From positions 7,398 to 71,397 of the forward strand of contig PAQS01000031.1 of NCBI GenBank assembly GCA_002709385.1: a stretch of DNA of 64,000 bases. The letters run 5' to 3'. Of this stretch, positions 51,993 through 52,378 are shown piece by piece. Source of the stretch: Waddliaceae bacterium. Lineage in GTDB: Bacteria; Chlamydiota; Chlamydiia; Chlamydiales; GCA-2709385. Positions within the stretch are counted from its first letter, which is position 1. Each line of letters opens with the position of its first letter. Under the pieces are notes generated by a model. That model had not been told where the DNA came from. It made no database searches and was given only the letters and a program-made list of their open reading frames with translations. A program made the position numbers and the translations under genes.

Positions 51993-52378
51993 ATACCTCC
52001 AATGGCTACCTAATCCGCGCTTCCAGTGCGTTAGATGAGGGTGAGATTTAGGGTATTTTTCTGAGCTCATGTTTTCACATGGGCAAAGGAAAATGCTCTA
52101 AAGATTACTCTTATCTAGCGTGCTGGAAGTGCGTTCGTTTATACCTCTTAAAATTGTTTAGGAGGGTTTCCAATGTTGGATCAAACAATCGTAATCTATC
52201 TCAGTTATATGGTTAATCTTTTTTATCCTATGACTTAGTCGCATCAGATGCAGCTTGCATAGTCCATCTATAAACTTACGCGCCTTACGAAGCTCGCAGG
52301 AGCTGCGCTTCGCCGCGTAAGCTCATATCTAAACCATGCAAGCTGCATCTGATGCGAGATTAGGTAGCCATTGGAGGT
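51993..52378. mobile_element. MITE/REPIN-like non-coding element: 21-bp terminal inverted repeats enclosing two long hairpins
   Basis: ACCTCCAATGGCTACCTAATC (51995-52015) and its exact reverse complement (52358-52378); hairpins at 52016-52133 and 52239-52357; mobility is inferred only from dispersed copies. Confidence 0.6.

Follow-up and report, generated by a model that had tools for sequence, protein, structure and literature searches.

A probable IS982-derived MITE with a strand-specific hairpin behind each terminal repeat in a Waddliaceae genome

Layout of the element

The window that we analyzed, a stretch of 64,000 nt of DNA from the genome of a Waddliaceae bacterium, contains a compact unit at positions 51995–52378. 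It is bounded by the 21-nt motif ACCTCCAATGGCTACCTAATC, which reads directly from the window at 51995–52015 on the plus strand and at 52378–52358 on the minus strand, both copies being identical. At ≤3 mismatches, the window holds four matches to this motif, compared with none in 100 shuffles. These two copies form the left and right terminal inverted repeats (TIRs; 51995–52015, plus strand, and 52358–52378, where the motif is read on the minus strand) and are flanked by the same three bases, TAT, at 51992–51994 and 52379–52381. These bases are the 3 bp of target that were duplicated upon insertion. The stop codon TAA of the neighboring open reading frame (ORF) at 52378–52971 (52380–52378, minus strand) takes two bases from the duplication and one, the final base, from the TIR.

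Each TIR runs straight into a single rod-like hairpin, namely hairpin A (118 nt, 52016–52133) behind the plus-strand motif and hairpin B (119 nt, 52357–52239) behind the minus-strand motif. An earlier note on this DNA had placed a motif and a hairpin of these lengths at both positions, and the folds agree: together with the motif, hairpin A has an RNA minimum free energy (MFE) of −82.4 kcal/mol (z = −13.4) and hairpin B of −86.6 kcal/mol (z = −11.8), and none of 200 shuffles folded as well as A or B. Both folds depend on the strand. Hairpin A is stable only on the plus strand (−82.4 versus −41.3 kcal/mol on the minus strand) and hairpin B is more stable on the minus strand (−86.6 versus −66.1 kcal/mol on the plus strand). 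The same folds were obtained for the hairpins alone using DNA parameters (A, −32.4 on the plus versus −16.1 on the minus strand; B, −46.3 on the minus versus −40.2 on the plus strand). With R1, a covariance model of the TIR plus hairpin unit, A and B score 115.8 and 113.7 bits, respectively. The two hairpins had been called unrelated, which holds insofar as alignment A1 shows no extended similarity between them; they do, however, share short motifs at equal positions, each arm carrying AGAT and, close to the apex, C-G-A.

The 105 nt between the hairpins begin with a transposase leader remnant (52134–52172, plus strand) that includes a ribosome-binding site, AGGAGG, at 52160–52165. It is followed by a gene stump of 21 codons (52173–52238, plus strand), in which the first nine codons are fused in frame to the last 12 and the stop codon. 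The stop codon abuts hairpin B, as it does in variant copies of the insertion sequence (IS). At its N-terminus, the translation of the stump, MLDQTIVIYLSYMVNLFYPMT*, matches MIDQSIVVY of the copy on contig C9 and LDQIIVIY of the copy on C40, and its tail, LSYM, matches TLSYI (C40) and VLAYM (C33) near their C-termini. The leader stretch after hairpin A recurs at other loci (C3, C40, C28, C4 and C49). We read hairpin A as the left-end module and hairpin B as the right-end module of an IS982 lineage, with a transposase gene stump and its leader between them.

Relation to the IS982 family

Elsewhere in the genome, a variant of the motif bounds copies of an IS982 transposase gene. The copy at C33:39685–40251, which carries the variant motif and one frameshift, is the sole long one in the genome and reaches 141.9 bits (cut-off 130). 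On C9, an N-terminal transposase fragment lies after motif and hairpin; on C25, C30 and C17, motif and hairpin are followed by the reverse complement of the 3′ end of the transposase gene; and on C40, a motif-type copy links hairpin A and its leader with what remains of an IS982 C-terminus. The assembly of this genome contains no full-length IS bounded by exactly this motif; the full-length source copies probably lie unassembled at contig ends. In relatives, intact multi-copy IS982 elements of 1146–1149 bp (G086 and G071) carry a TIR plus a ∼118-nt hairpin at both ends, as does one of ∼1160 bp in G085, and the left TIR in the window resembles those at the ends of intact IS982 copies from relatives. 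Across relatives, R1 matches flank the transposase at 12 of 19 loci. The C33 copy lacks the right hairpin, which had suggested that the hairpins are separate mobile insertions into the repeat. We dropped this idea: a 5-nt direct repeat borders the missing stretch, which points to a deletion, and every intact relative has the module.

In PMC7335449 (Fayad, Kallassy Awad and Mahillon 2020), IS982 TIRs are given as 11–32 identical bp starting with 5′-AC, target duplications as 2–10 bp, and the repeat consensus as AC(N)6T(N)5TT. The TIRs in the window are identical at 21 of 21 bases, start with AC and have TAT on both sides. Their fit to the consensus is partial: A1, C2 and T9 agree, and positions 15–16 read CC instead of TT, where the repeats of relatives read CT. 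The lineage shares with the family a DDE transposase of ∼280 aa (NCBIfam NF033520) encoded by a single ORF, an element size of ∼1 kb and short direct repeats. It differs in that a ∼118-nt hairpin lies inside each repeat, giving an IS of ∼1146–1160 bp, whereas the transposase coordinates of the ISfinder members tabulated in PMC7335449 leave no room for two hairpin modules. The paper has no passage on end stem-loops or palindromes and uses 'hairpin' once, in an unrelated context; its supplement may show repeat alignments. Nor did we find a description of IS982 end hairpins in the literature, and the strand-specific end structure is apparently undescribed.

The window copy has no gene beyond its 21-codon stump, and no IS982 DDE transposase lies between its repeats, as an autonomous member would have. 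It combines a length of 384 bp with terminal repeats, the TAT duplication and a gene stump, and it belongs to a family of 23 repeat pairs in which the exact 384-nt form is single-copy, no second full-length copy being present in this genome. There is thus little doubt in our minds that the unit is a non-autonomous, internally deleted, transposase-less copy of the IS982 family, i.e. an IS982 MITE, a known kind of element. An IS982-derived MITE in the Cardinium endosymbiont of Oedothorax gibbosus is likewise a transposase-less derivative that has multiplied in a single genome, where intact parental elements presumably mobilize it (Halter et al. 2022, PMC9769881). It comes from another phylum and another parental IS; the present element, in contrast, has retained a structured module at each end, and these modules are conserved across its order. 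Our best explanation as a whole, to which we give a probability of roughly 80%, is a deleted IS982 copy with a transposase supplied in trans and hairpin end modules inside its repeats, the role of these modules being much less secure. On this explanation, the 21-nt motif is the TIR that the DDE transposase of the family would bind, and the element would have been inserted or moved by transposase acting in trans, from full-length copies.

The earlier note had proposed either undescribed small-RNA genes or single-stranded mobile units of the REPIN-like or HUH (Y1) type, with the motif as cleavage site and the hairpin as independent, variable cargo. Its view that the unit is mobile DNA is supported by the IS982 ends and 3-bp duplications, and the motif does seem to be an enzyme recognition site, namely the TIR of an IS982-family (DDE) insertion sequence. 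By the second refuting condition that the note had set for itself, its reading falls, since the ends of an IS982-family element account for both hairpins, although we did not find this IS lineage described with such hairpins. That shape is kept rather than sequence, that one strand is favored and that the genome has one Y1 transposase gene would all agree with RNA genes or HUH units. However, the motif forms an inverted repeat with 3-bp duplications and is physically joined to IS982 DDE genes, and no Rfam family reached its gathering score, whether with the element or with 12 loci that carry related units; only sub-threshold microRNA-precursor look-alikes appeared, and Acido-Lenti-1 did not match either. 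We consider this origin very improbable. An undescribed family of structured RNA genes was not borne out, and of the single-stranded mobile units, what stands is that one strand seems to be selected, not that they are REPIN-like or HUH-mobilised.

A search for Y1, IS630 or reverse-transcriptase genes flanked by the motif had also been suggested, and none is linked to it. The sole Y1 gene lies on contig C20, which carries no motif, and scores 29.8 bits with the RAYT model against a cut-off of 80; we rejected a REPIN/RAYT system on these grounds. IS200/IS605-type HUH elements have neither inverted repeats nor target duplications, and the perfect 21-bp inverted repeats and 3-bp duplications rule out this type as well as PATEs. 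An IS630/Tc1-mariner MITE was rejected because IS630-type DDE_3 (PF13358) has no match in the genome and because the duplication is 3 bp long and not restricted to TA. Reverse transcriptase (RVT_1) likewise has no match in the genome.

Copies in the genome and conservation across the order

Genome-wide, we counted 82 copies of the motif at ≤3 mismatches (40 forward, 42 reverse), compared with none for the reversed pattern. At ≤4 mismatches there were 124 matches, which form 23 pairs facing inward, graded in size between 39 and 384 nt; 3-bp direct repeats flank 9 of these 23 pairs (2.09 expected). Short repeats, among them AGAT and AGCTCAT, mark the junctions of the deletion series, and hairpin-less 50-nt TIR-loop-TIR units occur at seven loci. 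Twelve DNA sequencing runs contain the stretch or part of it, whereas no RNA run was listed as doing so. Among contigs from four runs, none bridges an empty site at the locus; the joints found there correspond to deleted forms known from other loci.

The first hairpin criterion (domain start within 3 nt, span ≥100 nt, at least 40 pairs) discriminated poorly, with 11 of 82 motif copies and 11 of 300 controls passing. An energy cut did discriminate: the 125 nt downstream had an MFE ≤−50 at 7 of 82 motif copies and ≤−69 at 6 of 82, compared with 0 of 300 random windows reaching ≤−50 (minimum −48.3). A motif hit followed by an intact long hairpin is therefore the exception (6–7 of 82), and random windows yielded none. 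Intact long hairpins are rare, being kept at 6 of 82 copies, and most copies have decayed. Hairpins A and B are nevertheless not unique: each recurs in this Waddliaceae genome as a module of one repeat family, with five intact copies of hairpin A. The window itself mirrors this picture. It contains a solo TIR motif at 26955–26975 (minus strand) with no mismatches and no hairpin behind it (partial R1 match only, 21.2 bits), a degenerate TIR-like copy at 12958–12978 (plus strand) with three mismatches and no hairpin (R1, 18 bits), and a fragment of a variant (ACCCCCGATGGTGACCTAATC-type) TIR plus hairpin module at 27–88 (plus strand; partial R1 match, 28.7 bits). The last is supported by a blastn match between C31:7426–7496 and the IS end on C9.

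For comparison across the order, we assembled 26 TIR plus hairpin units from 11 genomes. In all 26, at both IS ends, the hairpin is 115–121 nt long and starts 0–1 nt after the TIR, and in all 26 the strand read inward is the more stable one. The sequences differ among the units, yet 39 of 41 pairs covary through compensatory changes; alignments A2 and A3, being fitted to the covariance model, lean towards its structure. A purine-purine internal loop, AGAU/AGAU, sits 28–29 nt up the stem and is nearly invariant, and the pairs flanking the GA/GA loop are invariant in 26 of 26 units. Paired cells amount to 88.8%, compared with 53.5% in shuffles (0 of 500 reached the observed value) and 40–48% when the partners were slid. 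G.U pairs outnumber A.C pairs by 135 to 20 in the 26 units and by 115 to 27 in 29 further units. Across this set, the units resemble one another in shape, size, position and polarity but not in sequence, as the earlier note had proposed, and the fold of one strand seems to be under selection.

Of 150 genomes of the order, 67 gave a match to the covariance model, whereas 150 genomes of another phylum gave none; the module is kept in 57 of 111 sampled genera and in ∼40–45% of sampled genomes of the order. At ≤3 mismatches, the 21-nt motif was found in none of 40 same-order relatives, and exact scans for the motif core gave two stray single matches in species-representative genomes and five in metagenome contigs, none with a hairpin. 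Transposase-less elements with one hairpin (∼160 nt) or two (325–411 nt) are multi-copy in relatives, with intact hairpins, and 3-bp direct repeats flank six of nine double-hairpin elements there. From one such genome (G060), we fetched 11 element copies; the query used did not find an IS982 transposase there at E-values up to 1e-10. Variants that keep a pair exceed those that break it by nine to three in G060 and by 33 to six in G052.

Rods of ∼100–160 bp with terminal inverted repeats are also known from the Correia/NEMIS elements of Neisseria and the ERIC sequences of enterobacteria, which are present in many copies per genome, intergenic and transcribed with their neighbors. They have no sequence relation to the element studied here, whose parent is identified and whose hairpin is part of the autonomous ends; we know of no parental IS established for Correia/NEMIS or ERIC.

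Possible roles of the hairpins

What the hairpins do is far less clear than where they come from. Tentatively, and at somewhat less than even odds, we prefer a structural role in cis, in which the strand with its 5′ end at the tip folds as single-stranded DNA at each end, over a role in read-in RNA. A single-stranded rod would form during transposition or copying and would hold a fixed geometry beside the transposase-binding repeat. The pair-preserving changes and intact hairpins in multi-copy, transposase-less families of relatives speak for such a role. Against it stand the 75 of 82 motif copies in this genome that lack an intact hairpin and the G.U pairs and purine-purine loops, which are more typical of RNA. 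Furthermore, since hairpin-less 50-nt units recur, the repeats alone may suffice for movement. Two further points weigh against it, namely the absence of the right hairpin from the C33 copy and the chance that compensatory differences between MITE subfamilies stem from different parental IS copies.

A stronger form of the single-stranded reading, which we hold to be rather doubtful, is that the IS982 lineage needs one folded single strand per tip, with the repeat read as a duplex and the ∼118-nt rod with its AGAU/AGAU loop read as a structure on the strand that has its 5′ end at the tip. Integron attC sites and the ends of IS200/IS605 elements (IS608) are recognised as folded single strands, with the structure and a few unpaired or mispaired bases conserved, rather than the sequence, and only one strand functional. 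These systems differ in using tyrosine recombinases or HUH enzymes and in lacking terminal inverted repeats, whereas the present element has a DDE transposase, classical repeats and target duplications, and its use of a single strand is something that we only infer. Two points count against the single-stranded reading in either form. We know of no DDE transposase that requires a folded single strand. Full-length ORFs are similar in length in hairpin-bearing (275–282 aa) and hairpin-less (273–279 aa) IS, and there is therefore no extra domain to read the hairpin. If true, this stronger form would bring structure-specific end recognition of the attC/IS608 kind into a DDE family and would hint at a single-stranded or replicative intermediate in IS982 movement.

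The hairpins could instead act as RNA, with transcripts entering from one flank or the other, or from abutted ends at a junction, folding into the rod; we regard this as possible but unlikely. On this reading, the rod would be cut or would block ribosomes, the left one insulating the transposase gene from transcription that starts outside and the right one making or stopping an antisense RNA. In its favor, the fold is strand-specific and rich in G.U (135 versus 20 A.C), and both covariation and internal loops in which purines face purines are characteristic of structured RNA. The left hairpin sits on the strand that is sense to the gene, immediately ahead of its ribosome-binding site and start codon. 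In IS10, IS50 and IS200, structured leaders are established as a shield against read-in transcription, and a purely regulatory role would predict that hairpins decay after loss of the transposase gene, as they have in this genome (6 of 82 intact). However, in every lineage the well-folding strand at the right end is antisense to the gene, which excludes a 3′-UTR role and means that an inward transcript must be postulated. The promoter and terminator scan also found no promoter-like or terminator-like site inside the element, no U-run follows the hairpins, and the transposase-less multi-copy families of relatives keep their hairpins intact, with pair-preserving changes.

It seems improbable that the hairpins are functionless palindromes hitch-hiking beside the repeats, kept complementary by templated repair or slippage. 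Long palindromes are visibly unstable here, as the deletion series from 39 to 384 nt with its junctions at AGAT or AGCTCAT attests, and some IS982 relatives in the same order (L037, L041 and L044) have no hairpins at all. In a transposase tree, from which five loci without a usable ORF were excluded, hairpin-bearing and hairpin-less copies are compatible with one change, with weak support (61/30), and we claim no clade. Yet the length is fixed at 115–121 nt in all 26 units, the loop motif hardly varies and keeps a constant distance, and the module is retained in 57 of 111 sampled genera. In addition, the excess of G.U over A.C (6.75:1) is tied to the tip at both ends, which a symmetric DNA process would not yield.

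For the IS982 family, no structure exists and the transposition pathway is open, according to PMC7335449. A conserved, strand-specific structure of protein size at a fixed distance from both repeats offers a handle on this pathway. The covariance model also serves to tell these repeats apart from real small-RNA candidates in the genomes of this group. TIR plus hairpin repeats are frequent in these genomes and break their assemblies.

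Motif copies and hairpins in the window and the genome

The motif ACCTCCAATGGCTACCTAATC lies at 51995–52015 (+) and, letter-identical, at 52378–52358 (−); with up to 3 mismatches, four matches were found in the window, compared with none in 100 shuffles. Directly after each of these two copies comes a rod-like hairpin, 118 nt long on the left (A) and 119 nt on the right (B). Folded as RNA together with its motif, A reached −82.4 kcal/mol (z = −13.4) and B −86.6 kcal/mol (z = −11.8), and in neither case did any of 200 shuffles fold as well. The opposite strands folded much more weakly (−41.3 for A and −66.1 for B), an asymmetry that was kept when the hairpins alone were folded with DNA parameters (A, −32.4 vs −16.1; B, −46.3 vs −40.2). 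Sequence and folds agreed with an earlier note, made from the sequence alone, on the coordinates, lengths and polarity of A and B and on the lack of extended similarity between them.

The genome to which the window belongs (G000; 3.15 Mb in 49 contigs, 38.5% G+C, with the window on contig C31) holds 82 motif copies with up to 3 mismatches (40 forward, 42 reverse; none for a reversed-pattern control) and 124 with up to 4. What follows the motif is recurrent rather than unique and falls into two types, which correspond to the beginnings of A and B. Using blastn with 51980–52395 as the query (416 nt, the element plus ∼15 nt of flank per side), we obtained 106 partial matches in the genome, and the window's element was the sole full-length copy. 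The 124 matches form 23 inward-facing pairs, leaving 78 unpaired, and the pairs measure 39, 45, 50 (seven pairs), 56, 71 (three), 72, 76, 117, 128 (two), 160 (two), 187, 274 and 384 nt, the last being the window's element. In the shorter forms, the joined parts meet at short direct repeats that both of them contain, such as AGCTCAT, which joins mid-A to mid-B in the same way at three loci. The 125 nt downstream folded at ≤−50 kcal/mol for 7 of the 82 motif copies, and at ≤−69 for 6, whereas none of 300 random windows reached −50 (minimum −48.3). The earlier note described a hairpin after both motif copies of the window's element; intact long hairpins occur beyond the random expectation, but most copies in the genome are without one. 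Together, the size series, the deletion junctions and the fold counts indicate that motif plus long hairpin is the intact state, which few copies have kept. At C16:46487–46557, the 12 nt to the left and the 12 nt to the right of a 71-nt repeat pair are mutually reverse-complementary, so this small element lies within a second element or a larger palindrome.

An IS982 element with a hairpin at both ends

The motif is the terminal inverted repeat (TIR) of an IS982-family element, the repeat bound by transposases of this type, and the window's element is an IS982 derivative. A variant motif, ACCCCCGATGGTGACCTAATC, precedes diverged A and B, and an IS982 transposase gene is physically linked to it. 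On contig C33, positions 39685–40251 matched NCBIfam NF033520 with 141.9 bits (cut-off 130), and beyond one frameshift the match carries on in another reading frame and runs off the contig. The right repeat of the frameshifted copy (C33:39500–39530) has no hairpin; a 5-nt direct repeat at the borders of the gap fits a deletion. On C9, motif, hairpin and leader are followed by a 98-aa ORF with a weak match to NF033520 (E = 2.6e-4); on C40, a window-type motif copy links an A-like hairpin and leader to a C-terminal IS982 remnant; and at a terminus of each of C25, C30 and C17, the motif and a B-like hairpin are followed by the reverse complement of the transposase gene's 3′ end. The G000 contigs contain no full-length copy that carries the exact motif. 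Since the smallest contig is 19 kb and IS copies lie at contig ends, full-length copies have probably collapsed out of the assembly. Some 400 nt from the truncated copy on C9 lies a tmRNA gene (L012:1888–2296, − strand; Rfam RF00023, 151 bits), with a short ORF resembling a recombinase tail in between; this region may be an integration hot spot.

The enzymes suggested in the earlier note (RAYT/Y1, IS630 or reverse transcriptase) had to be abandoned. Neither the IS630-type domain DDE_3 nor reverse transcriptase had a match in the genome. Its sole Y1 gene (C20:39648–40100, − strand, or L015:3648–4100; 150 aa; PF01797, 97.5 bits) scores as IS200-like (NF033573, 81.2 bits) and reached only 29.8 against a cut-off of 80 with the REP-associated model; the motif is absent from its contig, C20.

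In the window, the order is TIR, A, leader, in-frame transposase gene stump, B and TIR. Downstream of A, AGGAGG (52160–52165, +) precedes an ATG start at 52173 (+), and the frame 52173–52238 translates to MLDQTIVIYLSYMVNLFYPMT and then a stop. We assign the stump because its residues 1–9 agree with the N-termini of the transposases in the C9 and C40 copies, its tail resembles a stretch near the C-termini of transposase copies in G000, and its stop codon abuts B, an arrangement also seen in the variant-motif copies. TAT is present on either side of the element; an unoccupied version of the site did not appear in the contigs of four sequencing runs. Insertion duplicates 3 bp: 3-bp direct repeats lie beside 9 of the 23 TIR pairs in the genome, compared with 2.09 when the pairing of flanks was shuffled.

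A search of 40 relatives from the same order found no copy of the motif itself. Of 301 genomes of the order, 42 (among them G000) had a transposase related to that of C33; the closest is that of the relative G108 (59–63% identical). Three relatives, G086 (1146 bp), G071 (1149 bp) and G085, carry intact elements in multiple copies; their repeats resemble the motif (ACC.C..AT.GCTACCTAA.C), and a ∼118-nt hairpin lies directly inside each repeat, with left and right differing in sequence. The hairpins are thus parts of both ends of the autonomous element. Two shorter IS982 elements, at loci L041 (972 bp) and L037 (956 bp), had none. In a tree of 14 transposases, which left out five loci without a usable ORF, the G000 copy pairs with that of G108 (support 100/98), and the hairpin-bearing transposases might form a single group, since one change suffices, with weak support (61/30).

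The sections of an IS982 review consulted here (PMC7335449) list 70 members of 845–1282 bp with AC-starting repeats and 2–10-bp duplications, to be compared with the 3-bp TAT of the window's element; those sections state the pathway as unknown and contain no passage on a hairpin, stem-loop or palindrome at the ends. This kind of element is already known, because an IS982-derived MITE is described for Cardinium (PMC9769881). New here are the hairpin as a part of both ends of an autonomous IS, the hairpin architecture and its spread across the order; the literature searched, a partial coverage, yielded no description of IS982 end hairpins.

A fold kept on one strand, with a fixed purine loop

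Scanning further loci brought the repeat-plus-hairpin units to 26, drawn from eleven genomes including G000. Their hairpins measure 115–121 nt and begin 0–1 nt past the 21-nt repeat pattern, and the inward-read strand folds better in all 26. The MAFFT alignment is near gapless, and its conserved columns outside the repeat are two AGAT tracts, one 28–29 nt past the repeat and one at the mirror position of the 3′ arm, plus a C-G-A that both arms carry close to the apex. RNAalifold returned 41 pairs, 39 of them with compensatory double changes. In this structure 88.8% of cells are paired, compared with 53.5% in shuffles (0 of 500 reached 88.8%) and 40–48% when partners were slid by 1–3 columns; the covariation score was 0.931 vs 0.265. 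The suggestion that shape and size are kept, and not sequence, therefore extends from the window's two hairpins to all 26 units. The A-U and U-A pairs around an unpaired GA/GA are invariant in 26/26 units, and the site would, judged by its sequence, form a tandem G.A loop.

G.U occupies 135 cells of the 41 pairs and A.C 20; for 29 further units from four genomes, a model-fitted alignment gave 115 and 27, seven of these 27 stemming from two matches that run through single-hairpin elements in reverse. An A.C on one strand is a G.U on the other. The excess of G.U therefore indicates that the ability to fold has been kept on one strand only, the one that reads inward from the tip at either end.

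In relatives, multi-copy forms lacking a transposase retain the fold. Window-like elements (two inward-facing units, short middle) were found in four other genomes, G244 (325 nt, two copies, 90.8% alike), G242 (331, 333 and 331 nt at three loci, 88.6–93.4% alike, and another of 407 nt), G196 (330 nt) and G043 (351 and 411 nt), and 3-bp direct repeats lie beside 6 of 9 such elements of relatives. Single-hairpin forms (repeat, hairpin, repeat; ∼160 nt) occur in G000 (two copies), G071, G244 and G242, and are numerous in G060 (11 of 11 fetched) and G052. The G060 family (L087–L097, 11 loci; ∼159 nt, 59–60% G+C) comprises two subfamilies differing by paired stem changes, and a C33-related query found no IS982 transposase in that genome at E ≤ 1e-10. 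At majority-paired positions in the G060 family, variant types that keep the pair outnumber those that break it by 9 (three double changes, three to G.U, three from G.U) to 3. The corresponding numbers for nine G052 units, a mixture of at least two subfamilies, were 33 and 6 in a model-fitted alignment.

A covariance model of the repeat-plus-hairpin units (R1) matched beside the transposase at 12 of 19 relatives' loci. With rough E-values and one genome unscored per search, R1 matched 67 of 150 genomes of the order (57 of 111 genera) at E ≤ 0.001, a tally of related genomes and not of independent counts, 59 of 150 in a phylum-wide sample at E ≤ 1e-5, and none of 150 in an unrelated phylum (the one with a Lachnospiraceae record). 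Within the phylum-wide sample, none of the 26 members of one family of small genomes (1.0–1.3 Mb) had a match.

Possible role of the hairpins and setting of the window's copy

As to function, which we can only infer, we favour, with a probability of roughly 0.4, a cis-acting single-stranded DNA structure: the single strand at each tip would fold and act in cis beside the repeat. This is suggested by a polarity that is tied to the tips and mirrored, like transposase chemistry, and does not follow gene direction, by the fixed geometry with which the hairpin abuts the repeat, by the persistence of the fold with pair-preserving changes in gene-less multi-copy families, and by our scan, in which no promoter to make hairpin RNAs was seen. 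Against it stand the loss of the hairpin from most G000 copies, the 50-nt repeat-only units at seven loci, and the similar lengths of full-length ORFs with and without hairpins in the IS (275–282 vs 273–279 aa). G.U pairs and purine loops are also RNA-like features. Transcripts reading in from either flank might instead fold and then be cut or blocked; this would explain the left hairpin well, but the right one would need an inward antisense transcript, and we regard such an RNA role as somewhat less likely.

The window's element sits between two − strand genes, a ComF-like gene (51252–51983) and a 197-aa ORF without a Pfam match (52378–52971). The stop codon of the latter combines target-duplication bases with the terminal base of the TIR, and its C-terminus may have been altered by the insertion. 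Just upstream of the element (48368–51255) lie dnaA and genes for pyrroline-5-carboxylate reductase and a bactofilin, and the replication origin may lie nearby. By predicted structure, this DnaA comes nearest to a cluster made up mostly of Chlamydiota proteins, a lead at most. A 1770-aa ORF adjoins the element (53126–58438, − strand). Three studies of marine metagenomes also yielded contigs that contain parts of the stretch.
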